From positions 1-41,352 of the forward strand of contig JAJYIN010000002.1 of assembly GCA_021790075.1 (NCBI GenBank): DNA of 41,352 bases, written 5' to 3'. Below, one piece after another: positions 3,536 to 20,222 of this stretch. Under the pieces are notes generated by a model that ran no database searches, was not told the origin of the DNA, and saw nothing but the letters and a program-made list of their open reading frames with translations. Source of the stretch: Actinomycetes bacterium (GTDB lineage: Bacteria; Actinomycetota; Thermoleophilia; BMS3ABIN01). The translations under genes were made by a program, and so were the position numbers. Position 1 is the stretch's first letter. Each line of letters starts with the position of its first letter.

Positions 3536-4504
3536 TCAGGTCCAATAACCGGTATTTTCGCCTGCGGGCGCTTCCCGCACCTCGTTCAGGATCTCCTCAC
3601 CGCCGGACTCGAACATTTTCTTTCCCAATTGCTCACCCAGATTCTCCGCCAGGATGACCGGCCCCTCGATGCTGTCCCTGATGAACCTCTTGCCGTCCAG
3701 CGAGCCCAGATAAGCCCGCAGGATTAGCTTGTCCCCGGAGACAGTGGCATGGGCGCCGATCGGCACCTGGCAGCCACCTTCCAGCCAGCGCATCAAGGCG
3801 CGCTCAGCCTGCACCGCCGCCGTTGAGGCGGCGTCATCGTGAACCGTCACCAGGTCGCGGGTCGCGCCGTCCCCCTCGCGCACTTCGATAGCGATCACTC
3901 CCTGGCCGACCGCGGGAATCATCTCTTCCACGGAAAAATAGAAAGACACCTCGCTCTCACGCTCCAGCCGCTTGACGCCCGCCGCCGCCAGGATGGTGCC
4001 GTCCAGGCCGAGTTCAGCGATCTTGCGGATGCGGGTATCAACATTGCCCCTGATATCAACTATCTCCAGGTCCGGCCTCAGGGCCAGCAGCTGGGAGCGG
4101 CGGCGGAGGCTGCTGGTGCCGATGCGGGCGCCCTCGGGAAGGTCCGCCAGGCCGCCGGCCTGGCCCAGAAAAGCGTCACGTGGGTCCTCCCTGGCTCCAA
4201 GGGCCCCGATCATCAGGCCCTCCGGCAATTCAGTAGGCAGGTCCTTGGAGCTGTGGACGGCCAGGTCGATATCGCCGCTTAAGAGGGCGGTCTCGATCTC
4301 CTTGACGAAAAGCCCCTTGTCGCCGATCTCGGCCAGGGGGGAATCGAGGACCTTGTCTCCGGAAGTGGTGATCTTCTGGATCTTTACCGAAAGGTCGACG
4401 TTGTGCTTCTGCAGGGTCCAAGCCACGTGGTGCGCCTGAAACAAGGCCAGCTCGCTGCCTCTGGTTCCCAGTATGACACGCCTGGCGGCCGCTTCTTTAT
4501 TCAT
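3536..4504 (-). CDS. hemC: Hydroxymethylbilane synthase (porphobilinogen deaminase)
   Basis: The N-terminus has ILGTRGSELALFQA, with TSGDK, SSKDLP and GTSSLRR motifs. I chose the start at the ATG at 4504 (MNKEAAARRVILGTRGS), which overlaps the hemA stop by 8 nt. The longer ORF reaching 4597 is probably read-through of the frame. Confidence 0.9.
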   Translation of the reverse strand: MNKEAAARRVILGTRGSELALFQAHHVAWTLQKHNVDLSVKIQKITTSGDKVLDSPLAEIGDKGLFVKEIETALLSGDIDLAVHSSKDLPTELPEGLMIGALGAREDPRDAFLGQAGGLADLPEGARIGTSSLRRRSQLLALRPDLEIVDIRGNVDTRIRKIAELGLDGTILAAAGVKRLERESEVSFYFSVEEMIPAVGQGVIAIEVREGDGATRDLVTVHDDAASTAAVQAERALMRWLEGGCQVPIGAHATVSGDKLILRAYLGSLDGKRFIRDSIEGPVILAENLGEQLGKKMFESGGEEILNEVREAPAGENTGYWT

Positions 4505-5906
4505 CCCTGTCGCTGCCGCCGCTGCCGGCCATCTCTTCCCGGGGCCGTTCCGGTTCGCCCGCCCCGGACACTTCTTCCCGGGGAGGTTCCAGTTCATCGA
4601 CCCTGGACACTTCTTCCGTGGGCCGTGCCAGTTTCTTGTGGCCGTTCAGCTTGAACAGGCGGCGCATCGATTCCACATAAAGGTAGCCGCCGCGCTCGTT
4701 CGATGCCCGTTTCAGCTCCACCGTGGGACTGTGCAGGATCTTGTTGACGATACCCGACGCCATGGCCTCGATGCGGTTGCGGTCCTCCTCGGAGAGGTCG
4801 CCGTTGAACTTGCTGAGCGCTCTGGCCACCTCCGCCTCCTTGATCTCTTCCACCAGCTGCCGCAGAGCGGTGATGGTCGGCACCACATCCAGGCTGGAAA
4901 GCCACTGGGTGAAATTGAGCACTTCCTCGCCAATAATCTTTTCCGCCTTTTGTGCTTCCTTGCGGCGCGCTACCGCGTTGGCTTCGGCAACCTCGTTGAG
5001 ATCGTCGATGTCGTAGAGGAAGGCGTTGTAAACGTCGTTGACGCCGGGGTCGATATCACGGGGAACCGCGATGTCAATAAAGAAGATCGGCTTGTTGTGG
5101 CGCTGGCGCATGGCCTTTTCCACCTGGCCCTTGCGCAGCACGTAGTGAGGCGCGCCCGTGGAACTGATAACGATGTCCGCCAGGGGCAGGTAATCGGCAA
5201 GATCGTCGAAGCGGATGGCCTGGCCGTTGAACCTGTCCGCCATCTCTTCCGCCCGGCTGAACGTGCGGTTGCCCACCATGATGCTGGAGATGCCGTGCGA
5301 GAGCAGGTGGGTAGCGGTCAGCTCCCCCATCTTGCCGGCGCCCAGCAGCATGACGGTGCGGCCTTCCAGGTTGTCAAACACCTTTTTGGCCATCTCCACG
5401 GCTACCGACGACACCGACACGGGGTTCTCGCCGATGGCGGTTTCGGTGCGCACGCGCTTGCCCACTTCGAGGGAGTGGCGGAAAAGCCGGTTGAGGAGCA
5501 CGCTGGTGGTTTCACGGGCGTGGGCGTCGTGATAGGCCGCCTTGATCTGGCCCAGGATCTGGGCCTCGCCCACCACCAGGGAATCGAGGCTGCCGGCCAC
5601 CTTGTAAAGATGGCGGACGGCGCTCTCACCCTCGTAATAGTAAGAGCTGTCCTCCAGTTCTTCCCGGTCCACGCCGGCGAGGTGCGCCAGGGCAGCGAGC
5701 ACTTCGCGGTTGCCGGTTTCGGGGCGGGAGACAACCACGTAGATTTCGGTGCGGTTGCAGGTGGAAAGGGGAACGGCTTCCAGCACGCCGGCACTGTCCA
5801 GCAGTTTCTGGGAGAGAACCCCGCACTTCTCTCCATCAAGGGAAACCTTTTCCCGCAACTCCACGGGGGCGGTTTTATGATTTATGCCTAATACCGCGAG
5901 ATGCAT
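4497..5906 (-). CDS. hemA: Glutamyl-tRNA reductase with an unusual repetitive acidic C-terminal tail
   Basis: MHLAVLGINHKTAPVELRE, the STCNRTEIY active-site motif and the LLGAGKMGE NADPH site are all present. Confidence 0.92.
   Translation of the reverse strand: MHLAVLGINHKTAPVELREKVSLDGEKCGVLSQKLLDSAGVLEAVPLSTCNRTEIYVVVSRPETGNREVLAALAHLAGVDREELEDSSYYYEGESAVRHLYKVAGSLDSLVVGEAQILGQIKAAYHDAHARETTSVLLNRLFRHSLEVGKRVRTETAIGENPVSVSSVAVEMAKKVFDNLEGRTVMLLGAGKMGELTATHLLSHGISSIMVGNRTFSRAEEMADRFNGQAIRFDDLADYLPLADIVISSTGAPHYVLRKGQVEKAMRQRHNKPIFFIDIAVPRDIDPGVNDVYNAFLYDIDDLNEVAEANAVARRKEAQKAEKIIGEEVLNFTQWLSSLDVVPTITALRQLVEEIKEAEVARALSKFNGDLSEEDRNRIEAMASGIVNKILHSPTVELKRASNERGGYLYVESMRRLFKLNGHKKLARPTEEVSRVDELEPPREEVSGAGEPERPREEMAGSGGSDRDE
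4512..4628 (-). repeat. 3 x 39-bp in-frame tandem repeat encoding the HemA C-terminal tail
   Basis: The protein units are ARPTEEVSRVDEL / EPPREEVSGAGEP / ERPREEMAGSGGS. On the plus strand, CTTCC(C/G)(G/T)GGG recurs at about 4533, 4572 and 4611. Confidence 0.7.
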
Positions 5907-6514
5907 TTGTCGATCTCCGACTGCGCGGCGGCTTCGCCGCCGCTATGTAAAATTGCCGCCAGGTCCAGCTGCGCCAGTTCCGCCAGGCACTGCCGCTTGG
6001 CGTCCTCATCTTTCACCCGGGCTATCACCTGCCGGCGCGCTTCTCCCAGCAGTTCCAGCGCCCGGGCCCACTCCGGAGGAAACTCTTCTTCCAGCTGCCG
6101 GCGCAAACGTTTCGCCAGGGCCGGCAGCCCGCCGCCCGTGGAGACGGTCAGCATCAGATCGCCGCGGCGGACGGAGGCGGGAACATAAAAATTGCATTGC
6201 CCGGGCCGGTCGACCACGTTCAGCAGCAGCCCCCGGTCCTGAGCCTCTGACTCGACTTCCCGGTTGACCGCCTCGTCATCTGTGGCAGCAATGGCCAGAA
6301 AAGCCCCCTCGAGATCTCCCCGCCGGTAGGGCCTGTCCACATAGTCGAAGCGGCCTTGATGCCTTTCGAACTCAGGGTCAAGCACCGGCGACACCACCTT
6401 CACTTCAGCCCCGCATTCGAGCAGCGACTCCGCCTTGCGCAAAGCCACCTTACCGCCGCCGATTACGACGCAGGGGCGGCCTTCCAGCTTGAGATTGACA
6501 GGGTAAAGCGCCAC
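5888..6514 (-). CDS. Precorrin-2 dehydrogenase / sirohydrochlorin ferrochelatase (SirC / CysG N-terminal / Met8-like)
   Basis: It has the Rossmann motif VVIGGGKVALRKAESLLECGAEVKVVSP and is 208 aa long. It sits between resC and hemA. Confidence 0.85.
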   Translation of the reverse strand: MALYPVNLKLEGRPCVVIGGGKVALRKAESLLECGAEVKVVSPVLDPEFERHQGRFDYVDRPYRRGDLEGAFLAIAATDDEAVNREVESEAQDRGLLLNVVDRPGQCNFYVPASVRRGDLMLTVSTGGGLPALAKRLRRQLEEEFPPEWARALELLGEARRQVIARVKDEDAKRQCLAELAQLDLAAILHSGGEAAAQSEIDKCISRY

Positions 6515-6517
6515 ACC

Positions 6518-7576
6518 TTATCCCACCGAGCCGTAACTGTGGAGCCCGGAAAGCAGCAGGTTGACTCCCAGGTAGGTGAATAGCACCACGACCATGCCGA
6601 TCACGGCCAGCACCGCGGAATGGCGGCCCCGCCATCCCCAGGTCAGCCGCGTATGCAGATAGGCGCCGTAGAAAAGCCAGGTGATGAACGACCAGGTTTC
6701 CTTGGGGTCCCAGCTCCACCAGCTGCCCCAGGCCTGGTCGGCCCAGATGGCGCCGGTGACGATACCGATGGTGACCATGGGGAAACCAAAGGCGATGCCG
6801 CGATAGCTGACCTCGTCCAGCACATCAAGTGAAGGCAGCCGCTTGGAAAATGAAGGCTTGGCGGCGCCCCGGCCGGCCAGGTATCCCAGCCCCAGAGCCA
6901 CTGTCAGCCCCAGGAGGCCGCCGGCCCCGATCTTGAGCCAGTCGCTGGTGGCGTAAATCTTGCTGACGGCGCCCGTTACCGGGTCGGCGATCTTGGCCGG
7001 ATTGGCCCAGGTGGAGCCCAGCCACAGCCCCAGCACCAGCCCCAGGAGGCCAAACATGATCAGGAATGCCATCACGACATTTTGATAGTGTTTTTTGAGC
7101 AGATATTCCTGGACGACATAGAAGAAGCCGGCGCCGAAAGACAGCGCAAAAAATCCGTAGGAAAGCATGGCGATGGAGACGTGGATCCAGAGCCAGTAAC
7201 TCTGAAGCGCCGGCACCAGCGGTTCGGGACCCGTGTAAAACACAAAGGCGACGCTGTTGATGATGAACGCCGTGGGCACCACCAGCGCCCCGGCGGCCCG
7301 GATGGGGTAAAACCGCTCGGCGATCAGATAGAAGAGCACGATGCCCCAGCCGAACACCGACAGCGATTCATACAGGTTCGACATGGGCGCGTGGCCCGAG
7401 CTGATCCAGCGCAGGACCAGCGCCACCGTGTGGGCCGTCAGGCCAAAGACCAGCAGGGCCGTGCCCAGCTTCGCGGTCATGGCATTGCGCGTGATCAGGT
7501 GCCAAATGTAAAGGCCGCTGCATACCAGGTACGAAATAACCGCAATAATGAAGAGTATCTCTTCTACCTTAGCCAT
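6518..7576 (-). CDS. ccsA: Cytochrome c biogenesis System II haem-handling protein (CcsA/ResC)
   Basis: It is polytopic, carries the WWD-type motif WGSWWSWDPKETWSFITW, and has conserved His residues. Confidence 0.88.
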   Translation of the reverse strand: MAKVEEILFIIAVISYLVCSGLYIWHLITRNAMTAKLGTALLVFGLTAHTVALVLRWISSGHAPMSNLYESLSVFGWGIVLFYLIAERFYPIRAAGALVVPTAFIINSVAFVFYTGPEPLVPALQSYWLWIHVSIAMLSYGFFALSFGAGFFYVVQEYLLKKHYQNVVMAFLIMFGLLGLVLGLWLGSTWANPAKIADPVTGAVSKIYATSDWLKIGAGGLLGLTVALGLGYLAGRGAAKPSFSKRLPSLDVLDEVSYRGIAFGFPMVTIGIVTGAIWADQAWGSWWSWDPKETWSFITWLFYGAYLHTRLTWGWRGRHSAVLAVIGMVVVLFTYLGVNLLLSGLHSYGSVG

Positions 7577-8720
7577 CTGCTCTTGCCTCCTGTCCCAGTC
7601 TCAACCTGAGTTCGGCAGTAATCCGCTCGAAATCGCGCTTGAATCCCAGCTTGGAGCGGTTGGTCCGCCCTCCCATCAAAAGCTCATCCGACTTGCCGAT
7701 TTTCAGCCAGATACGCCGGTGCGGGAAATACAGCCCGATCGTGATTCCCACCATCATCATCGCAAAACCCAGGTAGATCAGGGTCTTGCCGGGACGCCGG
7801 CTGATCTCGATCACGCTGACGTAACCGCGGCTTGACTGGTAATAACTCGATTGATAAAAATTCGTCCCCTCCACCTTGAGCAGGTCGAGAAAGGAAGACG
7901 TCAACCGCAACGGGCCGTTGACGGTGATCGTCTGCCGGACCACCTGCTGCCCCCCATCCAGGACCTGCAGGTCGGTGGAATAGAGGGATGGCCTGTAACT
8001 GACAATCCGGTTGCCGTCATAAACCGGATCGGATTTCATATTGAACCCGTAGCTCTTGAGCTGGTAATCCGTGTTGGGAACGTTGATGGTGGCGCCGTCC
8101 GGGACGTCGAGACGTTCCTGAAAACCAAAGACCGCGCCACTGATCGCTCCTATACAGATTACCAGAAAACTAAGATGAAACATTAGTGAGGAAAGACCGG
8201 AAAAGCGGCCCTTTTGCGCCAGCACCGAGCCGCTCTCACCTGCATGGAGCCGGTAACGCGAGCCCTTGAGCAGATCCCGGGCGGCCCCCATCCCCTTCTC
8301 GCCGGCCCCCTCGAAACTGGCGGCTTCCGGCTGGTTGGCCACAAAAGCGTCCTTGACGTCTAAACGCAGCTTAAAAGCATGCTTGACCGTGGTGGGAAGG
8401 CGGTTGAGGATGCAGACCGAAAGGTTCGCCATCAGCAGCGTCAGGAGGGACATGAACCACCAGGAAGTGTACATGTTGAAGAGGCCCAGGAAGTTGTAGA
8501 AATTGTACAGCGGGTTCTTGACCCAGTCCGACTGGAGGGCTTCCTCACCTTGGGGAATGATCGTGCCTATGATCGAGAGGATGGCAATGATGAACAGCAG
8601 CGTCAGCGCCAGCTTCATGGAGATGAGGAAATGGAAGATCCTCATCCCTAATGGAGGCGCCGGCTTTGACACCTCGGCTGTCTCGGATATGGCGCTCATT
8701 TCTTTGACGGAATCAGACAT
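7569..8720 (-). CDS. resB: Cytochrome c biogenesis System II protein (ResB/Ccs1/CcsB)
   Basis: The N-terminal FLISMKLALTLLFIIA helix, a large extracytoplasmic domain and a C-terminal TM segment match the family. It overlaps the resC start by 8 nt. Confidence 0.85.
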   Translation of the reverse strand: MSDSVKEMSAISETAEVSKPAPPLGMRIFHFLISMKLALTLLFIIAILSIIGTIIPQGEEALQSDWVKNPLYNFYNFLGLFNMYTSWWFMSLLTLLMANLSVCILNRLPTTVKHAFKLRLDVKDAFVANQPEAASFEGAGEKGMGAARDLLKGSRYRLHAGESGSVLAQKGRFSGLSSLMFHLSFLVICIGAISGAVFGFQERLDVPDGATINVPNTDYQLKSYGFNMKSDPVYDGNRIVSYRPSLYSTDLQVLDGGQQVVRQTITVNGPLRLTSSFLDLLKVEGTNFYQSSYYQSSRGYVSVIEISRRPGKTLIYLGFAMMMVGITIGLYFPHRRIWLKIGKSDELLMGGRTNRSKLGFKRDFERITAELRLRLGQEARADG

Positions 8721-8741
8721 ATGACGTCATGCCAAGCGGGC

Positions 8742-9782
8742 CTAGGGTGCATCACCCTTGATAAAGGCTTTCTTGAAACTGGCAGCCTGTGACGGATCCG
8801 GCTGTGGCAGGGTGTCGGGCAGTTGCCATATTTGGATGCGGTTGTTCATCCGGTCGCAGATATAGAAACGTTTGGTGGAAGTTATTGCTATGCCGTCCGG
8901 AAAATTGACTTGGCCGTTCTGATCGCCCTTCTCCCCAAAAACGGATACCACGTCGCCGTCTTGGGTCAGGACGACAAACTGGTTGTTGAAATTGTCGGAT
9001 ACATAGACATTCCCGTCGGGTCCAAGCGCAATACCTTTCGGCAAACCGAAGGGACTGGTAATGTTGCCGTTGACATCGGGAGAACCCACCATCCAGCGAA
9101 CCTGCCCGCTGGAGTTGAGGGCGACGATGCGCCGGTTGAGTGAATCGGCCACGAAGAAATTGCCGGTATTGGGATCGACAACAATTCCTTCAGCGTAATT
9201 GAACTGGCCCTTATCCTTACCTTGCTTATCCGTGCCCCAGTGGCCTACATACTTGCCGTCGGCGTCAAAGATATATATGCCCGCCCAACTGGTCACATAT
9301 TCCTTGTCTCCGTAAATGGCAATTCCGTAAGGGGCAAACAGCTGACCGGCGGGGAAGTCCTTGGGGTCACGGGGAAGATTGAACTGGAAATCCCCGGCCT
9401 TGTTGAGAACCCGGACACCCCGGAAGTTGTAGTCGCATACGTACACGCGGTCCCGCGAGTCGTCAACGGCGATGTCGGCCATGTTGGCACGGAACTGGAG
9501 TGGATTCCCATCCTGGTCCTTGGTATCCACTTTAAATTGGAAATTGCCATCCTTGTCGTAAACATCAACTTCCGATTTGCCAGTGTTGCTAACATAGATG
9601 TTCTGGTCGACATCGGTGGCTACTCCAAAAGGAGCCAACACACCATAGATGGAAGTAATATAGCTGAAACCCCCGCTGATCGCCTGGGTCTGGGGAGTCT
9701 TGCGGGCAAGCAAAACCGCCACCAGTGCCAGCACGACTACCAGAACCCCCAGGACTATCAGCCTGCCTTTATACTTGCTCAT
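8742..9782 (-). CDS. Membrane-anchored NHL-repeat beta-propeller protein
   Basis: It has an N-terminal TM helix (LIVLGVLVVVLALVAVLLA). Repeated G.A.D..GN.YV.D..N.RV/I blocks (for example IYVSNTGKSEVDVYDKDG, VYVCDYNFRGVRVL, FFVADSLNRRIVAL, VYVSDNFNNQFVVL, FYICDRMNNRIQIW) follow. Confidence 0.85.
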   Translation of the reverse strand: MSKYKGRLIVLGVLVVVLALVAVLLARKTPQTQAISGGFSYITSIYGVLAPFGVATDVDQNIYVSNTGKSEVDVYDKDGNFQFKVDTKDQDGNPLQFRANMADIAVDDSRDRVYVCDYNFRGVRVLNKAGDFQFNLPRDPKDFPAGQLFAPYGIAIYGDKEYVTSWAGIYIFDADGKYVGHWGTDKQGKDKGQFNYAEGIVVDPNTGNFFVADSLNRRIVALNSSGQVRWMVGSPDVNGNITSPFGLPKGIALGPDGNVYVSDNFNNQFVVLTQDGDVVSVFGEKGDQNGQVNFPDGIAITSTKRFYICDRMNNRIQIWQLPDTLPQPDPSQAASFKKAFIKGDAP

Positions 9783-9816
9783 TGTTCAAACCGCCTTGTT
9801 CTTATAGCAAACAAAC

Positions 9817-10419
9817 TCATGTTGATACCCGCTTGATCGCGTTCTGCAGATCCTGGTCGTTGGGGTTGAACTGAGCCGCCGCCTGGTATTCCTTCAGGGC
9901 GCCGGCCTTGTCCCCCTGCTGCTCGAGAATCTGCCCCATCAGGTAATGTGAAGTCCAGGTAATGTCACCGTCAGCAAACGACTTCTGCAGATCGCCCTTG
10001 GCGGCGTCGAGGCTGCCCCGGTTGAATTCCAGCTGCGCCATCTGGTAATAGGCTTCATACTTTTGACCACTGGAATAGGCGTCGGCAGCATGGGAAAACT
10101 GGTCTATGGCATTGTCGAGGTCACCTTTCTTCTCATAGGCCACGCCCATTTTCAGCAGGAGGATGGGCTGATTGGGCGCTTGTGAGAGGGCCGTCTGCAG
10201 TTCGCGGATGGCGTCGTCATACCGGCCGGCGTCCAGATAGGCGGCGCCGAGGTTCGCGCGCAAAGTCGGATCATCGGGTTTATCGTTAACAGCCTTCTCA
10301 AATTTTTCTATGTTGAGCTGGGTAGCTGTAGGAGCCGTGCCCGGCCGCAGGTAAAAGAACAGGGTAACGCCCAAAGCAATGACGGCGGCGGCGATGGCAA
10401 TGTTGATTATCTTGGACAA
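9817..10419 (-). CDS. Membrane-anchored TPR-repeat protein
   Basis: An N-terminal TM helix is followed by about 4 TPR units (LGAAYLDAGRYDDAIRELQTAL, MGVAYEKKGDLDNAIDQF, and others). A TTG start lies 6 nt after GAGGAG. Confidence 0.8.
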   Translation of the reverse strand: MSKIINIAIAAAVIALGVTLFFYLRPGTAPTATQLNIEKFEKAVNDKPDDPTLRANLGAAYLDAGRYDDAIRELQTALSQAPNQPILLLKMGVAYEKKGDLDNAIDQFSHAADAYSSGQKYEAYYQMAQLEFNRGSLDAAKGDLQKSFADGDITWTSHYLMGQILEQQGDKAGALKEYQAAAQFNPNDQDLQNAIKRVST

Positions 10420-10539
10420 GAAGTTCTCCTCAGAAATATCCGAAAAAGAAATGTTATGGGTTAACCGGCGAAGATGTTTGCGCCCCCGCTGTCCTGGCGG
10501 CTAGATTCATTATGCATCAACCTCATGGCGAAACCAAAT

Positions 10540-11079: not shown

Positions 11080-11111
11080 CTTCGTTTTAATTCCTTATCT
11101 TTCCAATTTTT

Positions 11112-11138
11112 GGGGAGGCACCTCAAGGGTGCCTCCCC
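11112..11138 (-). terminator. Perfect 11-bp GC-rich hairpin 30 nt after the hexahaem cytochrome stop (I-shaped terminator or mRNA-stabilising stem)
   Basis: The sequence is GGGGAGGCACC-TCAAG-GGTGCCTCCCC. No U-tract follows on the minus strand, so its function as a terminator is uncertain. Confidence 0.5.
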
Positions 11139-11167
11139 ATATTCTACCTTCTACCAACCGGCCCGGA

Positions 11168-12280: not shown

Positions 12281-12312
12281 ATATGTAGACACCTCCTTTC
12301 GCCTTGGAATAA

Positions 12313-12607: not shown

Positions 12608-12925
12608 TAACCCCGGGGGGGTAATTAGGACTAAATCCGTTCAGTAACTTTTATCCTTCAGACCCCTATACCCAGTGTGAGCATTTACGGGAATGAATCG
12701 CGCAAGTTTGAGGATGCTCCGCAACTCATGCCAGTATAGCCTAAAAAGCCCGTACCAAAGCGGTTTTTCCTCAAATGGCAAAGAAAGGAAAAAGCGCAAC
12801 ATAAGACTCGCCGACCTCTGGTACTCTGCCAACCAGAAATTTTAGCCGTCCGGGGATGAATAAAATATCGGGGAATTCCCCTATACAGAAACGGCGGCAA
12901 AACACAACAGGTGAATCATTAGCAC

Positions 12926-13567
12926 TCAGCAGCGCGCCAGGTAGAGGATGTCTGTATAAGGACGCCGGGTCGGCATTTCCACCACGCTGGGCGCGAATCC
13001 CGCCCCCTCAAGCGCCTCAAGCGCCTGCCTGCGGCTGAGGAAACAGAGGCGCTCCCGCTTTCCCTGCGTCACTCCAATGCTCGTGGCCAGCAGTTCCTGA
13101 AAATGGGTCCAGGCGTATTTCCAGCGCGGCGAGGTCTCCTGCGCCTTCCAGACCAGCAACCCGCCCGGCTTCAATTTCTGCCTGCAAATATTCAATATTT
13201 CTTCCTGCTCCTGCCGAGGCAGCAGATACATGACGTCCACGATGGTGATGACGTCGCAGGGGGACAGATCCGCTGTCAGGATGTCGCCGCAGAGAAAACG
13301 GATGCCGTCCCTCTTCCCCACGGTGGCCTGGGCGTGCCCGATTTTTTCGCAGGAAAGGTCGATGCCGGTAACATGCCGGTGACGCGAATCCAGCGCCATC
13401 ATGTTGGCAAACAGGCCGTGCCCGCAGCCCAGGTCGAGGATGTCCCCGGCATCAGGCACGTGGCGCTCGACGAAGTCGAGGTCGCTCAGCAGCACACGCG
13501 TCCGCAGGAAGGCCCTGGTGGCCAGCGGCGCCGCCCGGTAGAGTTTGAGCGCTTCAGTTGCCTTCAA
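12926..13567 (-). CDS. Class I SAM-dependent methyltransferase
   Basis: Motif I is ILDLGCGHGLF, followed by an acidic loop GIDLS and motif LKPGGLLV. It overlaps the upstream gene by 14 nt. Confidence 0.8.
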   Translation of the reverse strand: MKATEALKLYRAAPLATRAFLRTRVLLSDLDFVERHVPDAGDILDLGCGHGLFANMMALDSRHRHVTGIDLSCEKIGHAQATVGKRDGIRFLCGDILTADLSPCDVITIVDVMYLLPRQEQEEILNICRQKLKPGGLLVWKAQETSPRWKYAWTHFQELLATSIGVTQGKRERLCFLSRRQALEALEGAGFAPSVVEMPTRRPYTDILYLARC

Positions 13568-15056
13568 GCGACACGCTCCTGGTCTTCCAGTCCACCATCA
13601 CCGAGTTCTGACCCGGCTGCCGGTCCATGAAGCGAAGCACCTGGTCCCAGGCCAGGGGCAGGTCTTTTTCCTGGCCGCCACCGGCAGGTTTCAAGTACCC
13701 TTCGAAAATGACCACATGCCTGATGGCGGGACCGAGCCCGATACTGACGGCATTCTCCTCGGTCGGATCGAAGCTGAGACTCTGATACTGCGGCAGATAG
13801 TATCTTACCTGCTGGTCATCGAAGACGGCGACGATAAGCGTGTCCGCGGGGTTGAACCCGGCTCTTATGGTATCCACGCGCGAGCGGAGGATCTCATCCC
13901 GCGCCGCCAGCTTGTTGGCGCTGAACTGCGGCGTGAAAACAAGAAAGAGCAGCAGGTTGCAGACGGTCAGGAGGCCGGCGGTCAGCATCAGGAATCTCTT
14001 CCTGGCGTCCGCGCGGCTGGTGGCAGCATCAGCAAGCCATGTCAACCCCCAGGCCGAGGCCAGCAGGGCCGCCGGCAGGAAGCTGAAAACGTACCCGAAC
14101 TCGCCAACGTGGACGAATGCATAAAAAAGGACGCTGGGGACGATCCAGACAGCCAGGAACCAGAACCGGCGGTCATGCAGAACCGGCCGCCATCGTTTCC
14201 GCGTGAGGCCGGCGATGAACCAGGCCATGAGCGGCAACGCCGCCGCCAGGGCCCAGGCCAGGAAAGTCCATAATGCCCTCAGGTTGGCGCCCAGCGCCCC
14301 GAGCCCGCCGCCCAGTACGGATGAAAAGCGCAGCAGGTAGTCGCTCTGGGCCGATGACGCTTGCTGGTAGGCGGTAAAGCCACCCGAGAGCAGTGCGGAG
14401 GGAACATACCACGCCAGAACGCCCGCCGCCAGCAGGGCGAGCGCGCCGGCGATCCTCCAGGCCGGTTTCCGGTACAGGCCAACCAGCAGAAGGGGAAACA
14501 GGAAAGGGAGCAGGTCCTGGCGGAAGCCGGAAGCAATGCCCAGCAGAAGGCCGGCCGGAAGCACATAGGCCTGATTCCCATCCCAGGTGCGGTAGATGAC
14601 GCCGGCGGTCACAATGCTGAGAAACGCCAGCAGCGTATAGGGATAGGCGACCTCGCTGTACGCCCAAAAGCTCAGGCTGGTAGCTAGTAACAATGCTGCG
14701 ATCAACCCTACTTCGCGGCCGAAAACGCTCCGCCCCAGCCAGTAGAGGGCGGCGGAGGCCGCGGCCGCGAAAAAGACGCTTACCCATACCAGGGCGGCGT
14801 TGGGGTCGCTGATGAACTGATGGACCAGCCAGACGGTGCCCACGTAAAAGATGTGCCCCGGAGGTTGCGGCTGCCCGCGGGTCACGTCGAAATGTTCGAT
14901 GGCCCTGGTGTAGAGCACCGAGTCCCACGCGTATAGCATGGTGGTGCGGAAAGGAATCCGCGATAGGAAAGTCGCGAGAAAAAGGGCTGTGGTTATCGGC
15001 CAGTCCGGCATGGCCCACGGCCGGCCAGGACCGGGGGGAGAAGAACCCGGCTTCAT
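13554..15056 (-). CDS. Polytopic GT-C-fold membrane glycosyltransferase-like protein (ArnT/PMT/DUF2723-like) with a C-terminal soluble domain
   Basis: It has about 11-12 hydrophobic helices. The first-loop motif YAWDSVLYTRAIEHF...PPGHIFYV resembles GT-C families. The ATG at 15056 overlaps the dihaem cytochrome stop as ATGA. Confidence 0.55.
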   Translation of the reverse strand: MKPGSSPPGPGRPWAMPDWPITTALFLATFLSRIPFRTTMLYAWDSVLYTRAIEHFDVTRGQPQPPGHIFYVGTVWLVHQFISDPNAALVWVSVFFAAAASAALYWLGRSVFGREVGLIAALLLATSLSFWAYSEVAYPYTLLAFLSIVTAGVIYRTWDGNQAYVLPAGLLLGIASGFRQDLLPFLFPLLLVGLYRKPAWRIAGALALLAAGVLAWYVPSALLSGGFTAYQQASSAQSDYLLRFSSVLGGGLGALGANLRALWTFLAWALAAALPLMAWFIAGLTRKRWRPVLHDRRFWFLAVWIVPSVLFYAFVHVGEFGYVFSFLPAALLASAWGLTWLADAATSRADARKRFLMLTAGLLTVCNLLLFLVFTPQFSANKLAARDEILRSRVDTIRAGFNPADTLIVAVFDDQQVRYYLPQYQSLSFDPTEENAVSIGLGPAIRHVVIFEGYLKPAGGGQEKDLPLAWDQVLRFMDRQPGQNSVMVDWKTRSVSLEGN

Positions 15057-15298
15057 CTGGTTTCCCCTGTGGCTGTCCCAGTGGTCTGCTGGACGGGGTG
15101 ACAGGAAGTGCAATCCGGTTTCCGGGGATGGTCGGTCTTCGGCGCTCCCTTGACACCCGCCTCATGGCAGCTGTCGCAATCCTTATAGACGCCGGCGCCG
15201 GGGTGGCCTGCCGGTGGCGGCGAAGAACCGGTGAGGGCGCAGGCCCAGGCCGAAAAAGCCAGCACCAGGACTGCCGCCACGATTAGAATTGTTTTCAA
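15053..15298 (-). CDS. Small membrane-anchored or lipoprotein dihaem c-type cytochrome
   Basis: The 81-aa product has an N-terminal hydrophobic segment (ILIVAAVLVLAFSAWAC) and two CxxCH motifs (CDSCH, CTSCH). A TTG start lies 6 nt after GGGGAGGGG. Confidence 0.75.
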   Translation of the reverse strand: MKTILIVAAVLVLAFSAWACALTGSSPPPAGHPGAGVYKDCDSCHEAGVKGAPKTDHPRKPDCTSCHPVQQTTGTATGETR

Positions 15299-15339: not shown

Positions 15340-15819
15340 CTATTCGATGAAATACTTCATGCTGATCTTTTTGAACTCACGGCTGCTGAACAGGAGCTCA
15401 TACGCGGCGATGCCGACCTGCTGTGACAGCTCCGCCGCCATCCGGCGGCAATCTTCTTCGGATGCGCCGTGGATCATGGCAAAGAGATTGTAATCCCATT
15501 TGTCCGCCCGGGGGCGCTGGTAGCAGTGGCTGACCTCGTCGGCCGCGGCCAGGATTGCTCCGACTTCTTCGGCCCTCGCGTCCGGCACGTCCCACGCGCT
15601 CATGGCATTGGCTGTATAACCCAGCCGCTGGTGGCGCACCATGGCGCCGAAACGGCGGATGGTGCCGTCCTGCTTCCATTCCTGTACCTTTGCCACCACT
15701 TCCGCAGGTTCCATGCCTGCCTGGGCCGCGATCTCGGCAAACGGCTCGGGCGTGACCGGAATTGTTTCCTGCAGCAGACGGATCAGTTCCTGCTCTTTTT
15801 CGGAGAATATTCTATCCAT
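15340..15819 (-). CDS. Siroheme decarboxylase subunit (AhbA/AhbB, NirD/L/G/H family, Lrp/AsnC-like)
   Basis: The 159-aa product has an N-terminal wHTH (EQELIRLLQE) and a C-terminal NirD-like domain (RRFGAMVRHQRLGY.ANAMSAW). It is paired with a paralogue and overlaps it by 8 nt. Confidence 0.85.
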   Translation of the reverse strand: MDRIFSEKEQELIRLLQETIPVTPEPFAEIAAQAGMEPAEVVAKVQEWKQDGTIRRFGAMVRHQRLGYTANAMSAWDVPDARAEEVGAILAAADEVSHCYQRPRADKWDYNLFAMIHGASEEDCRRMAAELSQQVGIAAYELLFSSREFKKISMKYFIE

Positions 15820-16273
15820 CGATCACCGGCAGGTCGACCTGTATCTTGAACAGCCGCGAGGCAGGCAGGTTGATGACCGGGCCGATGCCGGCGTCGGCTT
15901 CGATCTCCCCGATGATCTCTTCAATCCGCGCCCGGCTGGGAGCGATGAGCGTGAACCAGACGTTGTAATGGTGGTTGCGCTCATAGTTGTGGGTGACATT
16001 ATGGAAGCGGTTGATCGCGGCAATGGCGGCGTCCAGTTTTTCCGGAGGCACGTGCACGGCGCAAAGGGTGCTCGTATAACCCACCTTGCGGGAATCAAAG
16101 GAAGCGCCCAGGCGCCTGATCTCACCGGACTCCATGATCGCGTTGATGCGGTCGATGACCTCCTGCTCCGGAATGCCCAGTTTCTCGCCGACGGCGGCGT
16201 AAGGGCGTTCCTCGATGGGGAAATCCGCCTGGATCAGGGTTATGAGCTTTTTGTCGGTTCCATCCATATGCAT
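15812..16273 (-). CDS. Siroheme decarboxylase subunit (AhbA/AhbB family), second paralogue
   Basis: The 153-aa product carries DKKLITLIQADFPIEERPY and IRRLGASFDSRKVGYTSTLCA motifs. Confidence 0.85.
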   Translation of the reverse strand: MHMDGTDKKLITLIQADFPIEERPYAAVGEKLGIPEQEVIDRINAIMESGEIRRLGASFDSRKVGYTSTLCAVHVPPEKLDAAIAAINRFHNVTHNYERNHHYNVWFTLIAPSRARIEEIIGEIEADAGIGPVINLPASRLFKIQVDLPVIDG

Positions 16274-16276
16274 CGT

Positions 16277-17458
16277 CTAACGAGGGCCGGCGGGAGGCAT
16301 TTTCCTCCTGGCTTTCGGCTCGTAAACACAGAAAGGCTCCTCCCCCAGATAATCCCCGGTCACCTCATAGGCCCGGGCCCGGCAGCCGCCGCAGTAGCGG
16401 CGGTACTCGCAGTAGCCGCAGCGTCCATGGTAACCGTCCAGGTCACGCATCTCCCTGAAAACGGGAGAGTCGCGCCAGACATCACCAAAACTCTGTTCCT
16501 TGAGGCTGCCGCAGTTTACATCCAGGAAACCACAGATCTGGACCACGCCCTGGTATGAGATGAAGCAGAAACCCTGCCCACCCAGGCATCCCTTGCTCAT
16601 GGCGTCCATGCCGTGCGTCTCCACCGTCACCTTCTTGCCTTCGGCGTGGGCGCGCTGGCGGAGGATGCGGTAGTAATGCGGCGCGCAGGTGGGCTTGAAG
16701 TTGAGCGGCACCGTTTCCCGCTGGTCGTAGACCCAGCCCAGCGTCTCCTCGTACTGCTCGGGGGAAAGCTCCTGGTCGGCCAGTTCCTTGCCGCGGCCGG
16801 TCGGCACCAGCAGGAATGGATGGAAGGCGACCGCGCCCAGGTCGATGGCCAGCCGCAGGATGTCCGGCAGCTCGGCCAGGTTGACTTTGGTCACGGTTGT
16901 ATTAATCTGGAACTCGATGCCTGCCTTCCTGGCGGCCTCGATGCCTCTCATCACCTCGTCGAAAGCCCCGGGCACGCGGCGGAAATCGTCATGCGTCTGC
17001 GCCGTGGCGCCATCGACGCTCAAACTGATGCGGTCGATGCCGGATTCCTTGAGGCGGCGGGCATTTTCATCACTCAGGAGGGTGCCACAGGGGGACATCA
17101 CCATTTTCAGTCCCCTGTCGGTGCCGTAACGGGCTATCTCGTAGATGTTTTCCCTCAGCATGGGATCGCCGCCGGTGAGGATGACGATAGGCTTCCCGAC
17201 CGCGGCGATCTCGTCGATCACCTGGAAGCATTTCTCGGTCGAAAGTTCACCGGGGTACGGGCCCTTGTCGGCAGCGGCGCGGCAATGGCGGCAGGAAAGA
17301 TTGCAGCTGCGCGTCACCTCCCAGGCAACCAGCCGCGGCGCGGGCGGACCGCCGGGCTTGCCGCCCGGATGCCCGTGAGGCTGGCCGCCTGCACGCCCGT
17401 GTGGATGGCCGCCGGGATGACCCTGATGTTTGCCGGCGAGCCTAGCCAATCTCCTCAT
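16277..17458 (-). CDS. ahbD: Radical SAM/SPASM haem-pathway enzyme, NirJ2/AhbD-like (haem synthase). Start uncertain, possibly up to 17530
   Basis: It has the CNLSCRHC radical-SAM cluster motif and a C-terminal Cys-rich auxiliary-cluster region (CGYCEYRRYCGGCRARA). It is adjacent to AhbA/B and AhbC. The AhbC versus AhbD assignment is tentative. Confidence 0.7.
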   Translation of the reverse strand: MRRLARLAGKHQGHPGGHPHGRAGGQPHGHPGGKPGGPPAPRLVAWEVTRSCNLSCRHCRAAADKGPYPGELSTEKCFQVIDEIAAVGKPIVILTGGDPMLRENIYEIARYGTDRGLKMVMSPCGTLLSDENARRLKESGIDRISLSVDGATAQTHDDFRRVPGAFDEVMRGIEAARKAGIEFQINTTVTKVNLAELPDILRLAIDLGAVAFHPFLLVPTGRGKELADQELSPEQYEETLGWVYDQRETVPLNFKPTCAPHYYRILRQRAHAEGKKVTVETHGMDAMSKGCLGGQGFCFISYQGVVQICGFLDVNCGSLKEQSFGDVWRDSPVFREMRDLDGYHGRCGYCEYRRYCGGCRARAYEVTGDYLGEEPFCVYEPKARRKMPPAGPR

Positions 17459-18641
17459 CCGTGAGATAGCAGGCCGGGTCGGGGGCCCAGGGATCGCCAT
17501 AAACCAGGTCGGCGCGCACGCGCAGGGCACCGCCGCAGGCGTCGAACCATTTGCAGGAGCGGCAGCGGCCGTGGATATGGCCGCGCCGGTCCTTGAGCCC
17601 CGCCATCAGCGGGTCGGAAGTGTCCATCCAGATCTCGCTGAAGGGGCGCTCGCGCACGTTGCCGAAGCTGTAGTGCATCCAGAACTGGTCCGGGTGCACG
17701 TTTCCCTTGAAGTCGATGTCACCGAAGCCGACGCCCGAGCTGTAGAGGCCGCCGCCATTCCATTTCAGCAGCCGCATGACCGCCTCGGCCCGCTCCGGGG
17801 CCTCTTCCAGTAACTTCATGTAAAGGTAGATGCCGTCGACGTGGTTGTCCACGGTGAGGATATCCTTTTCCAGGCCGCGGTCATGCATGTCCCGGGTGCG
17901 GGTCAGGATGATGTCGAGGGCATCCCGGGTTTCAGCGTGGGTGAGGTCGTCGCTCTCCTTGCCCCGGCCCGAATAAACGAGGTGATAAAAGCAGGCGCGG
18001 TCGATCTCCTCCGCCTCGATGAAGTCGAAGATGCGGTGCAGGTCGGTGTAATTGTGGCGGGTCAGGGTCAGCCTGAGGCCCACCCGCTGCCCCACCGCCT
18101 TGCAGTTGCGGAAGCCGGCCATCGCCTTCTCAAAGGCTCCCTTGTGGCCCCGGAAAGCATCGTTGATGTCGCCGATGCCGTCCAGGCTGATGCCCACGTA
18201 GGTGAAGCCGAGGTCCTTGATCCGCTGGGCCACGTCGCGGGTGATCAGGGTGCCGTTGGTAGAGAGCGTCGGCCGGATGCCCAGCGAGACGGCGTGCCCG
18301 GCCAGTTCGAAGAGGTCCTTGCGCATCAGCGGCTCGCCGCCGGAGAAGAGCAGCGCCGGGATCTGAAACCGGGCCAGGTCCTCGATGAGCGTCTTGCCCT
18401 CCTCGGTGCTGAGTTCGCCCTCGTATTTCCTGGCCTCGGAATCGGTATAGCAGTGCACGCATTTCAGGTTACAGGTGCGGCTGGTGTTCCAGGCCACCAC
18501 CGGGCGCCGCTCCGAGGCCGACTTGGGGTTGCGGGGAATGTAGGGCGCCCCCTGCATCTCCTTGCCCTTGTGGCCGTGACCATACCGCAACGAGTCGGCG
18601 GGAGTGTCCCGGTCGCAGTAGAGTCGGGTGATATCGATCAT
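17442..18641 (-). CDS. ahbC: Radical SAM/SPASM haem-pathway enzyme, NirJ1/AhbC-like (Fe-coproporphyrin III synthase)
   Basis: It begins MIDITRLYCDRDTPADSLRYGHG, carries a CNLKCVHC cluster motif, and has a C-terminal CRSCKWFDACGG motif. Confidence 0.7.
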   Translation of the reverse strand: MIDITRLYCDRDTPADSLRYGHGHKGKEMQGAPYIPRNPKSASERRPVVAWNTSRTCNLKCVHCYTDSEARKYEGELSTEEGKTLIEDLARFQIPALLFSGGEPLMRKDLFELAGHAVSLGIRPTLSTNGTLITRDVAQRIKDLGFTYVGISLDGIGDINDAFRGHKGAFEKAMAGFRNCKAVGQRVGLRLTLTRHNYTDLHRIFDFIEAEEIDRACFYHLVYSGRGKESDDLTHAETRDALDIILTRTRDMHDRGLEKDILTVDNHVDGIYLYMKLLEEAPERAEAVMRLLKWNGGGLYSSGVGFGDIDFKGNVHPDQFWMHYSFGNVRERPFSEIWMDTSDPLMAGLKDRRGHIHGRCRSCKWFDACGGALRVRADLVYGDPWAPDPACYLTDEEIG

Positions 18642-18674
18642 GCTGTAACTCTTTCCTAGTTTTTTCCGGCTCCC

Positions 18675-20222
18675 TCAGGCGCCGGCGTCGCCGGTCAGCG
18701 CCTTGACCAGCCCCGGGATTGTGTACTCATCCGCCACGATGTCAACCTTCAGGCCCAGCTCCCGGGCCGTATCGGCGGTGACGGGGCCGATGCATGCAAT
18801 CGTCACACTCGCGGGCAAAAGAGAGAAGTCGAAACCGTCGAGGAGCGCTACGAAGTTTTTGACTGTGGATGAGCTTGTAAAAGTAATGATATCAATTTCA
18901 CCGGCGCTGAGCATATGTTTCATGTCACTTGCGCCCGCGTCATCGAGCATGGTTTCGTAGGCGGTGACAACCTCCACCCGGGCGCCGGCCCCTGCCAGTT
19001 TCTCGGGCAACACTTCGCGGGCCTCCCTGGCCCTGGGGATCAGCACGCGGCTGCCTTTCACGCCCAGATCGAGCAGCCCCTCGACCACCGATTCAGCCCG
19101 GTACTCGGGCGGCACGAAATCAGGTTTGAGCCCCCGGGCCTCGAGAGCCGCCGCCGTCGCCGGGCCGATCGCCCCCAGCCTGACGCCCTTGAGGGCGCGC
19201 ACGTCACCAATCCTCTCCAGGCGGGCGAAGAAGTGGTCTACGCCGTTGACGCTGGTAAAGACGATCCACTCGTAAGCAGGTTCAGCGACGGCAACGACCT
19301 TTTCCACGGCCGCGTCCAACGCCGCGTAGCCGTCAGCGGGGGGCGCCACCCGGATGGTGGGAAACTCCACCGGCACGGCTCCCGCCTGCCTCAGCGCCTC
19401 CACCAGATCGCTGGCCTGCGCCCGCGAGCGGGTGACCACTACCTTCCTGCCGAACAGGGGCCTGTCCTCGAACCAGTGCAGCTGCTCCCGCAGGGATACA
19501 ACCTCGCCGACGATGGTGATGGCGGGCGCCTTGAACCGGCGCTCTTTGACCAGCTCGACGATGTTCGACAGGGTGCCGGTAAGGGTTTCCTGCCGCTCCG
19601 TGGTCCCCCACCGGATCAGAGCTACCGGCGTTTCCGGGGAACGGCCGTTGGCCACCAGGTTCTCGACGATATAGGGAAGATTCCTGACGCCCATCAGGAA
19701 GACCAGGGTGCCGACACCGGTGGAGATCCGGTCCCACTTGATGGTGGACTCGGCCTTGGCAGGATCCTCATGGCCGGTGATGAAGGCCACGTCCGTGGTG
19801 AGGCCGCGGTGGGTCACCGGAATACCCGCGTAGGCAGGCACCGCGTATGCCGAGGAAATACCAGGCACCACCTCGAAATCAACGCCTGCCTCCCTCAGCG
19901 CCAGGGCTTCCTCACCACCACGGCCGAAGATGAAGGAATCGCCGCCCTTGAGCCGCGTTACCACCTTCCCGGCCGACCCCAGCTCCGCCAGCAGCCGGTT
20001 GATGTCCTCCTGCTGCATGGTATGGTTGCCGCCCTTCTTCCCCACATAGATGAGCTCCACGTCCGGGCGGGCATGCGCCAGCAGCTCCTTGCTGGCAAGG
20101 TAGTCATAAACGATGGTGTCGGCTTCGCGGACGCACCGGACCCCCTTGAGGGTGAACAGGCCCGGGTCGCCAGGGCCGGCGCCAACCAGGTAAACCTTTC
20201 CCTTTAAATCGCCTGCTGTCAT
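18675..20222 (-). CDS. Fused uroporphyrinogen-III C-methyltransferase / uroporphyrinogen-III synthase (CobA-HemD)
   Basis: The N-terminal half carries VYLVGAGPGDPGLFTLKG and the SUMT core. The C-terminal half of about 250 aa is HemD-like (VVVTRSRAQASDL...FTSSSTVKNF). Confidence 0.9.
   Translation of the reverse strand: MTAGDLKGKVYLVGAGPGDPGLFTLKGVRCVREADTIVYDYLASKELLAHARPDVELIYVGKKGGNHTMQQEDINRLLAELGSAGKVVTRLKGGDSFIFGRGGEEALALREAGVDFEVVPGISSAYAVPAYAGIPVTHRGLTTDVAFITGHEDPAKAESTIKWDRISTGVGTLVFLMGVRNLPYIVENLVANGRSPETPVALIRWGTTERQETLTGTLSNIVELVKERRFKAPAITIVGEVVSLREQLHWFEDRPLFGRKVVVTRSRAQASDLVEALRQAGAVPVEFPTIRVAPPADGYAALDAAVEKVVAVAEPAYEWIVFTSVNGVDHFFARLERIGDVRALKGVRLGAIGPATAAALEARGLKPDFVPPEYRAESVVEGLLDLGVKGSRVLIPRAREAREVLPEKLAGAGARVEVVTAYETMLDDAGASDMKHMLSAGEIDIITFTSSSTVKNFVALLDGFDFSLLPASVTIACIGPVTADTARELGLKVDIVADEYTIPGLVKALTGDAGA

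Follow-up and report, generated by a model that had tools for sequence, protein, structure and literature searches.

The siroheme route of haem synthesis has been described for archaea and sulfate reducers, whereas Gram-positive bacteria are said typically to follow the coproporphyrin route (PMC11306076, PMC10452713, PMC10991733, PMC13564367), most of them using it; among Gram-positives with AhbD, many have none of the remaining Ahb enzymes (PMC10991733, PMC13564367). In Corynebacterium glutamicum, haem genes share one operon with ccsX-ccdA-resB-resC, the genes hemA-hemC lie nearby and control is exerted by HrrA (PMC3353115). In iron reducers of the Gram-positive type (PMC10376724), as in Desulfovibrio ferrophilus (PMC5815863), genes for NHL-repeat and tetratricopeptide repeat (TPR) proteins stand beside multihaem cytochrome genes, where the encoded proteins have been proposed to aid secretion, orientation or stabilisation of surface cytochromes, although their function is not established (PMC10376724, PMC5815863). 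Here, we analyse a stretch of 41,352 nucleotides—positions 1 to 41,352 of contig JAJYIN010000002.1 (assembly GCA_021790075.1) from an actinomycete of the Thermoleophilia lineage BMS3ABIN01, hereafter the window—in which positions 3536–20222 combine genes for siroheme-route haem synthesis, for haem attachment by System II (ResB and ResC) and for extracytoplasmic c-type cytochromes. We conclude that this is probably a composite locus: a housekeeping string of siroheme-route haem and System II genes that hosts a separately controlled electron-transfer cassette.

The window has a G+C content of 62%. Real genes were called from listed open reading frames (ORFs) and G+C content by codon position, and families were assigned with Pfam and with curated TIGR/NF models and their cut-offs. 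Conservation was assessed from neighbourhood look-ups, a one-genome-per-species scan and a tblastn synteny map; labels such as L001 and L003 denote relatives' loci compared with the window. The cassette consists of four genes, encoding a secreted hexahaem c-type cytochrome (11168–12280), a lipoprotein (10540–11079), a TPR protein (9817–10419) and an NHL-repeat beta-propeller protein (8742–9782), and lies on the minus strand within a single unbroken minus-strand run.

Gene order across this run recurs in at least 12 Actinomycetota metagenome-assembled genomes (MAGs). It is complete in L001, L003/L017, L008, L009, L010, L012, L016, L021 and L043, appears as partial copies on short contigs in L011, L013, L014 and L022, and takes a variant form in L020. 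In full, it reads SurE-HAD-cobA/hemD-ahbC-ahbD-ahbA-ahbB-(dihaem)-GT-C-(methyltransferase)-hexahaem-lipoprotein-(second cytochrome)-TPR-NHL-resB-resC-sirC-hemA-hemC, with the genes that vary among genomes in brackets. An earlier reading of this DNA from its sequence only (the sequence-only reading) had pointed to tetrapyrrole supply, System II attachment and cytochrome cargo as nested in one cluster, and in related genomes that nesting is indeed conserved. Identity to the window is 62–92% for the haem enzymes (86–92% for AhbC), 47–57% for GT-C and ResB and 35–50% for the cassette proteins, among which the lipoprotein always follows the hexahaem cytochrome (38–50% identity in relatives) and the NHL protein is syntenic in relatives (39–51%). 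Two of the genes between the ahb set and the cassette are not found in every relative: most relatives keep the dihaem cytochrome gene (49–63% identity), which gave no match in L008 and L022 and was not called in L043, and the methyltransferase gene is dispensable, being missing at the equivalent position in L003, L009, L010, L012 and L013. That bacterial genes generally cluster by strand, and nothing more, speaks for a fortuitous juxtaposition of unrelated same-strand genes; because the order is kept across many species-level genomes while the cassette proteins are only 35–50% identical, chance is excluded and we regard this explanation as refuted, with a negligible probability.

Within the conserved order, the cassette itself varies in composition. 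Relatives carry a second cytochrome gene between the lipoprotein and TPR genes (L001 11646–12467; likewise L009, L010, L012, L016, L017, L021 and L043), whose membrane-anchored product of ~270 aa has five CXXCH motifs and one CX3CH and shares the PHGG(Y/F)S N-terminus; it is not present in the window between 10419 and 10540. Over its full length, the window's hexahaem cytochrome is closest to that of the stand-alone cassette in L044 (49% identity), which hints at cassette replacement.

The cassette is a modular unit. The hexahaem-lipoprotein-TPR-NHL quartet occurs without haem genes in L015, in L023/L024/L026, where a 519-aa paralogue heads the cassette, and in L044, where adenylate kinase follows it. 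More distant versions accompany a molybdopterin oxidoreductase, a NarJ-like chaperone and iron–sulfur (FeS) proteins in L005 and a Rieske/cytochrome b complex in L006. One MAG holds both a nested cluster (L014) and an unlinked paralogue beside lon-clpX-clpP-tig (L019), and therefore ResBC cannot serve one cargo only. In L023, positions 6677–10798 encode a 1373-aa secreted protein with the same hexahaem domain at its end, followed by a 799-aa secreted protein; the former suggests a giant surface version of the hexahaem family.

The hexahaem gene also appears to carry its own control signals, set in the spacer of 645 bp between it and the methyltransferase gene. A sigma-70-type promoter-like site, TTGACA-17-TATCTT (12579–12607, minus strand), matched 10 of 12 positions in a scan, and TTGACA together with TAnnnT is kept in 11 of 12 aligned spacers. 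Across genomes, the spacer retains 80–85% nucleotide identity over ~100 nt, against 35–42% for the adjoining cytochromes. Downstream of the promoter-like site lies a leader whose 5′ domain (12404–12576, minus strand) includes ~75 nt that are nearly invariant and a long-range helix formed by GUUGCAGU and ACUGCAAC. Immediately 3′ of ACUGCAAC comes an anti-Shine-Dalgarno strand, ACCUCGUUUGGCC (12417–12429, minus strand), which pairs with the Shine-Dalgarno (SD) region of the hexahaem gene, GGCGAAAGGAGGU (12291–12303, minus strand), itself nearly invariant in relatives. The resulting anti-SD:SD helix of 11 bp is 97.7% paired over 12 sequences, one of its pairs changing from C-G to U-A in five of them.

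Covariation argues for a fold in the 3′ half of the leader. Its 27 pairs are 90.9% paired, compared with 81.2% in shuffles (none of 500 shuffles reached the observed value), compensatory double changes occur in 12 pairs, and the covariation score is 0.38 as against 0.06–0.145 in slid controls. A covariance model of the leader (R1) scores 142.5 bits in the window and 87–181 bits in 17 loci, and in the loci examined the leader always lies upstream of a cytochrome gene, including L023 and L026, which lack the haem genes; the model did not find it in L015, L018, L020 or L044. The distance from the start of the element to the ATG is constant at 278–298 nt, corresponding to a 5′ untranslated region (UTR) of ~290 nt. 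Rfam 15 gave no match at gathering thresholds in the whole window, and only noise (E ≥5) in 12250–12950. The spacer would thus be a conserved structured regulatory RNA that sequesters the SD, with its own promoter-like site (12281–12607 for both, minus strand). Since the anti-SD strand pairs with the SD, translation would be off unless the fold is opened, and a signal that opens the anti-SD:SD helix would switch hexahaem synthesis on. Two other ideas about the leader were rejected: a small-peptide gene is ruled out because a 1-nt indel in L001 and L014 disrupts the sole frame that opens with ATG (MRCS...); and further copies sought in metagenomes by a pattern scan came to three matches, none of which scored with the covariance model and which we attribute to chance.

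Helix 5 of the leader coincides with a palindrome, TGTGA-N6-TCACA (12323–12338, minus strand), the sole exact copy in the window. Eleven other loci each contain exactly one exact copy. Of eight distinct loci in which the distance to the start was measured, seven are from Actinomycetota, and each of these has the copy a short way upstream of the cytochrome gene. Exact copies also precede homologous cytochrome genes in distant genomes (L007 9954–9969, L035 9885–9900 and L036 2711–2726). Such genomes include an Acidobacteria MAG, which has the palindrome ~120 nt upstream of the cytochrome gene, and a Zixiibacteriota MAG, which has it upstream of a tblastn match at which no long ORF was called; the actinobacterial leader is absent there. 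In one subclade, other hairpins take the place of the palindrome, which amounts to covariation. The palindrome may be an RNA hairpin, a CRP/FNR-type operator or both. A role as a classical activator site was rejected, because its centre falls 37.5–50.5 nt before the start codon with the SD in between, which suits neither the class I nor the class II geometry.

At the other end of the hexahaem gene, 29 nt past the stop codon, lies a perfect 12-bp GC-rich hairpin (11111–11139, minus strand) that is terminator- or stabiliser-like, has no U tract and has a centroid energy of −26.4 kcal/mol. The same hairpin, of 12–13 bp and with compensatory changes, recurs in L001 (~10868–10899) and L017 (~10893–10921), preceded after the hexahaem stop by a conserved ~30-nt stretch with repeated GGUAGAA. 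It may serve to stabilise or attenuate the message for an abundant product, and would fit an abundant, stable, monocistronic hexahaem message with partial read-through.

These observations bear on the proposal of the sequence-only reading that the whole 17 kb is a single co-regulated production line, with haem synthesis and ResBC dedicated to one extracellular cytochrome system. Part of that proposal stands: the genes are physically nested, in an order kept in at least 12 MAGs; all point in the same direction and overlap frequently; and no promoter could be recognised among the closely spaced genes downstream of the hexahaem gene, from the rest of the cassette to resBC-sirC-hemA-hemC, so that read-through from the hexahaem promoter could co-express them. 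Dedication and single control fared worse. The cassette is found without haem genes and as an unlinked paralogue in the same MAG as a nested cluster, and the haem enzymes are conserved like core genes (62–92%) while the cargo diverges fast (35–50%). The promoter-like site, leader and 3′ hairpin of the hexahaem gene point to at least two, and probably three, expression units. In addition, hem-resBC linkage is known in actinobacteria without the cassette, and because it is known in Corynebacterium, supply plus attachment is an actinobacterial theme rather than a feature of this cargo (PMC3353115). Taken as a whole, the dedicated line is distinctly unlikely. We infer instead that the cell uses the Ahb route and ResBC for haem and cytochrome c in general, and that hem-resBC linkage is ancestral and housekeeping.

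The composite locus that we favour would have two layers. The first would be a general string for haem and cytochrome c biogenesis, in which the Ahb route replaces coproporphyrin-route genes. HemA and HemC, followed by CobA-HemD and SirC, are predicted to lead to siroheme, with HemL and HemB supplied from elsewhere; AhbA/B, AhbC and AhbD would then convert siroheme to haem b without oxygen, and ResB-ResC would export the haem and attach it to CXXCH motifs outside the membrane. The second layer would be the extracytoplasmic electron-transfer cassette of hexahaem, lipoprotein, TPR and NHL proteins lying inside the first, with the dihaem/GT-C pair, seemingly translationally coupled, just upstream of it and, in some genomes, the methyltransferase too. 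The hexahaem protein would be an abundant cell-surface or cell-wall electron carrier, whose folding, anchoring or organisation would fall to the lipoprotein and to the TPR and NHL proteins. Proximity to haem supply and ResBC would be advantageous rather than exclusive, because each hexahaem molecule consumes six haems. The host clade is one of uncultured Actinomycetota that are probably anaerobic.

The genes of the first layer bear out the functional labels of the sequence-only reading, which family matches uphold. At the upstream end of 3536–20222 stands a CobA-HemD fusion of uroporphyrinogen-III C-methyltransferase and uroporphyrinogen-III synthase (18675–20222, minus strand, as are all genes described here; PF00590, TP_methylase, and PF02602, HEM4; NF004790 319 bits, cut-off 198). 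Next comes an AhbC-type radical SAM/SPASM enzyme, a candidate 12,18-didecarboxysiroheme deacetylase (17442–18641), for which TIGR04054 (NirJ1, 561 bits) and TIGR04546 (AhbC, 534 bits) are clearly the top models, yet both fall under the 650-bit cut-off. AhbD haem b synthase (16277–17530; TIGR04545, 549 bits, cut-off 500) matches only from residue 67, and its true start is probably near 17458; the upstream start would yield an N-terminal His/Gly/Pro-rich extension (HPGGHPHGRAGGQPHGHPGGKPGG, window 17380–17530, minus strand), and gene calls in L001 include an N-terminus of similar length. The siroheme decarboxylase pair follows, both members above curated cut-offs and their genes adjacent and overlapping: AhbA, the alpha subunit (15812–16273; NF040708, 163.5 bits, cut-off 140), and AhbB, the beta subunit (15340–15819; NF040707, 196.9 bits, cut-off 125), which overlaps the AhbA stop by 8 nt.

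On the far side of the cassette, ResB/CcsB (7569–8720; PF05140, 251.6 bits), ResC/CcsA (6518–7576; PF01578, 184 bits, with the WWD motif WGSWWSWDPKE in the translation), a CysG-N/SirC-type precorrin-2 dehydrogenase (5888–6514; TIGR01470 154 bits, cut-off 62; PF13241), HemA glutamyl-tRNA reductase (4497–5906; GlutR_N, Shikimate_DH and GlutR_dimer domains) and HemC porphobilinogen deaminase (3536–4597; PF01379, 267 bits, and PF03900) are contiguous, co-directional and overlapping. The CysG-N/SirC-type enzyme may possibly also be the sirohydrochlorin ferrochelatase, and the HemC match, which begins at residue 42, makes ATG 4504 the probable start. With the CobA domain and the CysG N-terminal domain both above curated cut-offs, the siroheme supply genes are in place, and the predicted set from uroporphyrinogen III to haem b is complete in the window (CobA, HemD, CysG-N/SirC, AhbA, AhbB, AhbC-like and AhbD), which would modestly extend the known range of the complete Ahb set to Actinomycetota. 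None of hemE/N/Y/H/Q occurs in the 41-kb window. The sequence-only reading had listed hemB, hemL, resA and ccdA as missing, and none is found among the other ORFs of the window; the thiol-reducing partners ResA/CcsX and CcdA are likewise missing from the relatives' 20-kb loci and may be encoded elsewhere. An AhbD-like radical SAM/SPASM gene (36–46% identity) directly adjoins a hexahaem homologue at L007 8597–9784 and L030 9678–10766, and in L007 it also adjoins a complete Ccm (System I) operon.

Two points of gene structure were revisited. Overlapping start and stop codons, reported before as frequent, were seen at AhbA/AhbB, dihaem/GT-C (ATGA), ResB/ResC, SirC/HemA and HemA/HemC. The earlier count of 20 genes in 3536–20222 required correction: 17 lie inside this interval, and the run totals 20 only if three upstream genes, co-directional, equally conserved and extending to 22152, are included. 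These encode a Zn_ribbon_8 protein (21886–22152; PF09723, 66 bits), which is the first gene of the conserved string and is also found upstream of SurE in L001 and L003; SurE 5′/3′-nucleotidase (20974–21807; PF01975, 198 bits), syntenic in relatives at 63–80% identity; and a HAD-family phosphatase (20324–20977; PF13419, 161 bits), also syntenic.

The hexahaem cytochrome starts at ATG 12280, with AGGAGG upstream, which gives the 370 aa of the public gene call rather than the 389 aa of a GTG start. The protein has a Sec signal peptide ending in AMA, six CXXCH motifs and matches to Paired_CXXCH_1, and it carries a ~90-aa insertion relative to most relatives. A search returned 163 homologues at E ≤0.001, the named ones from Thermoleophilia or Actinobacteria MAGs. 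All six CXXCH motifs are invariant in a 28-sequence alignment and invariant or at least 90% conserved in 103 homologues; seven further conserved histidines outside the motifs would suffice for bis-His ligation, and the mature N-terminus is conserved in the family as P-H-G-G-Y...C-x-x-C-H-x-x-H.

When the family profile was compared with all PDB sequences, OmcS of Geobacter sulfurreducens ranked top (E 8.2e-7 with 28 sequences, 9.1e-10 with 103), and with 103 sequences OmcE came second (3.4e-6), ahead of MtrA (1.7e-4). The match to OmcS is co-linear over haems 1, 3 and 4. Using hhalign, the probability was 96.1% when OmcS was the only target sequence and rose to 98.6% (E 1.2e-15) with a profile of 32 OmcS-family sequences; the alignment is confined to the signal peptide plus haem sites 1 and 2, and with the profile it covers 73 N-terminal columns. 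Precomputed Pfam matches give the two families a common signature (PF09699/PF22113/PF14537/PF14522). AlphaFold2 models of the hexahaem protein reached a predicted local distance difference test score (pLDDT) of 41.6 with 28 sequences, and a pLDDT of 66.7 with a predicted template modelling score (pTM) of 0.64 with 103; Foldseek found no match to these models in the PDB at E ≤10. Models of poor to mediocre quality and an empty Foldseek result provide no fold evidence for or against similarity to OmcS. We therefore file the protein as a member of the Paired_CXXCH_1 superfamily with OmcS as its closest solved relative, and not as an OmcS orthologue.

Could it nevertheless form OmcS-like filaments, its subunits joined head to tail by His ligation between neighbours so that a monoderm cell would bear a conductive nanowire, with the lipoprotein, TPR and NHL proteins assembling and anchoring it and GT-C glycosylating it? 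The two best PDB matches are both filament formers, and the conserved H-x-G-G...CxxCHxxH at the mature N-terminus aligns with FHSGG...CEGCHTMH of OmcS. The second histidine of CEGCHTMH reportedly ligates the haem of the neighbouring subunit. Seven conserved non-motif histidines for six haems, a final CXXCH at the extreme C-terminus as in OmcS and a 3′ hairpin that suggests an abundant structural subunit point the same way, and the omcS region of G. sulfurreducens likewise includes genes for a beta-propeller protein, a lipoprotein and a TPR protein (PMC3495685). On the opposing side, homology is significant over the first two haem sites only, there is no structural support, CxxCHxxH is frequent among multihaem proteins, the spacing of haems 4–6 (27 and 34 residues here) is strongly unlike that of OmcS, and sequence cannot reveal polymerisation. 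A nanowire is accordingly quite improbable.

A different function would be that of a soluble or wall-space shuttle, carrying electrons for membrane respiratory enzymes in the manner of periplasmic multihaem carriers and taking no part in extracellular electron transfer. Such a role is suggested by the distant cytochrome, TPR and NHL genes that sit with the molybdopterin oxidoreductase, NarJ-like chaperone and FeS proteins of L005 and with the Rieske/cytochrome b complex of L006, and a monoderm cell needs no outer conduit. The nested clusters, on the other hand, encode no oxidoreductase, the hexahaem domain that ends the 1373-aa secreted protein of L023 suggests a surface role, and NHL and TPR proteins accompany the iron-reducing cytochrome clusters of Gram-positives (PMC10376724). 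On balance, we consider the shuttle rather unlikely and retain an electron carrier of the cell surface or cell wall as the probable product of the cassette.

The proteins that accompany the hexahaem cytochrome gave fewer leads. The lipoprotein has 179 aa and a lipobox (VAIS|C), only a sub-threshold match to ARC6-like_IMS, no PDB relative by sequence and no informative relatives. The TPR protein matches TPR families and is anchored by an N-terminal hydrophobic helix; the CcmH/CycH-TPR model PF23914 matches 15 of 16 orthologues, but all generic TPR models do likewise. The NHL-repeat protein (PF01436, 69.9 bits) is also membrane-anchored. Upstream of the spacer, the minus strand encodes an 81-aa dihaem c-type cytochrome, membrane-anchored or secreted (15053–15298; two CXXCH motifs and weak Cytochrome_C7/c3 matches only), a GT-C fold glycosyltransferase (GT39/PMT_2, DUF2723-like; 13554–15056; PF13231, 31.8 bits, cut-off 26.1) and a class I SAM-dependent methyltransferase (12926–13567; Methyltransf_25/23/11). 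The GT-C family is small (75 matches, named GT39 or DUF2723) and gave no useful PDB sequence match; its coupling to the dihaem gene is specific to this clade. As a cytochrome-specific enzyme, GT-C was rejected: distant homologues occur in polysaccharide loci without cytochromes, and the link is unsupported beyond this clade.

Several points weigh against the composite locus and the surface carrier as we have drawn them. The cluster shows no evident partner that would oxidise quinol. Near-invariance of the leader's 5′ domain leaves its helices with almost no covariation, and the promoter, transcription start and termination of the hexahaem gene are read from sequence alone. The housekeeping status of the Ahb and ResBC genes is judged from the locus rather than from whole genomes. 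Homology to OmcS is solid only in the N-terminal double-CXXCH part, alongside a mediocre model (pLDDT 66.7) and an empty Foldseek search. Finally, given the polysaccharide loci of its distant relatives, GT-C may be linked to the cytochromes by position only.

The rest of the window encodes a helicase, an SLOG protein, glycosyltransferases, activase-type proteins, TrxA, enolase, MazG, Mfd, Pth, L25 and phosphoribosyl pyrophosphate (PRPP) synthetase, as well as two PrsA-like peptidyl-prolyl isomerases (PPIases). The latter form a tandem pair of PrsA/SurA-like foldases (32619–34757, minus strand) ~13 kb from the cassette; a SurA_N-like protein is encoded within the cytochrome-TPR-NHL cluster of L006. 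On the plus strand, 25798–29123 encodes two DUF2229/HGD-D proteins and a BcrAD/BadFG-type ATPase, which together resemble an activase module of the 2-hydroxyacyl-CoA dehydratase or benzoyl-CoA reductase-like kind and fit an anaerobic lifestyle.

A literature search found no paper describing this cluster or its leader. The locus combines known kinds of system, and the leader RNA may be an element new in kind; what appears new is OmcS as the closest solved relative of the hexahaem cytochrome, together with a covariation-supported, SD-pairing leader that has no Rfam match. If our interpretation is correct, a deep-branching uncultured actinobacterial clade makes haem by the anaerobic siroheme route and not by the coproporphyrin route regarded as typical of its phylum, and a conserved surface cytochrome system whose nearest solved relative is Geobacter OmcS would bring monoderm Actinomycetota into the search for extracellular electron transfer and possible cytochrome filaments. 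The leader is a testable candidate for a new class of regulatory RNA controlling a haem-hungry protein, and a well-defined target, since it has an anti-SD helix, does not vary in length and matches nothing in Rfam. The quartet of hexahaem, lipoprotein, TPR and NHL genes offers a small gene set with which to study the role of NHL and TPR proteins in cytochrome assembly, a recurrent question for Gram-positive metal reducers. A bolder conjecture, distinctly improbable as a whole, is that the leader is a new riboswitch-class RNA sensing a signal of haem or redox supply, such as haem, iron or a redox or second-messenger metabolite, which unmasks the ribosome-binding site of a filament-forming OmcS-superfamily cytochrome on a monoderm and so couples anaerobic haem synthesis, haem attachment and nanowires.

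In Geobacter, too, a regulatory RNA precedes genes for OmcS, namely the GEMM riboswitch for cyclic GMP–AMP (cGAMP), whereas the leader in the window is unrelated to any Rfam family, GEMM included. With SD-sequestering riboswitches and RNA thermometers in general, the leader shares a structured 5′ UTR, an anti-SD strand beside the closing helix of a conserved domain and covarying helices; it differs in belonging to no Rfam family, in its unusual length of ~290 nt and in a palindrome that is possibly a CRP/FNR-type operator. Like G. sulfurreducens OmcS (PDB 6ef8/6nef), the hexahaem protein has six c-type haems, the last of them bound at the C-terminus, and an N-terminal H-x-G-G...CxxCHxxH...CxxCH module; the two differ in that the confident alignment spans only about the first 70 residues, the spacing of haems 3–6 is dissimilar, no structural match was obtained, the host here is a monoderm and filament formation is only hypothesised.

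Compared with the hem-ccs operon of C. glutamicum, the locus shares an actinobacterial host, haem genes strung with resB-resC and adjacent hemA-hemC; it departs from that operon in ending with AhbABCD instead of HemE/HemY/HemH/HemQ, in having no ccsX/ccdA and no hemE/hemY in the string, in placing a cytochrome cassette and GT-C unit between the ahb genes and resBC, and in a structured RNA leader on the cargo gene where C. glutamicum has known HrrA sites. The Ahb pathway of sulfate reducers and archaea (PMC11306076, PMC10452713, PMC13564367) has the same components (AhbA, AhbB, AhbC-like and AhbD with CobA, HemD and CysG-N/SirC), but the host here is an actinobacterium and its AhbC falls below the curated cut-off. 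Comparable in cargo are the clusters of the metal reducers Dethiobacter alkaliphilus, Thermincola and Carboxydothermus (PMC10376724) and of D. ferrophilus (PMC5815863), which likewise combine secreted multihaem cytochromes with NHL beta-propeller and TPR proteins. Theirs hold different, larger MtrA-, OcwA- or CymA-like cytochromes and are not set among haem-biosynthesis or ResBC genes; the leader RNA and the lipoprotein of 179 aa belong specifically to the family described here.

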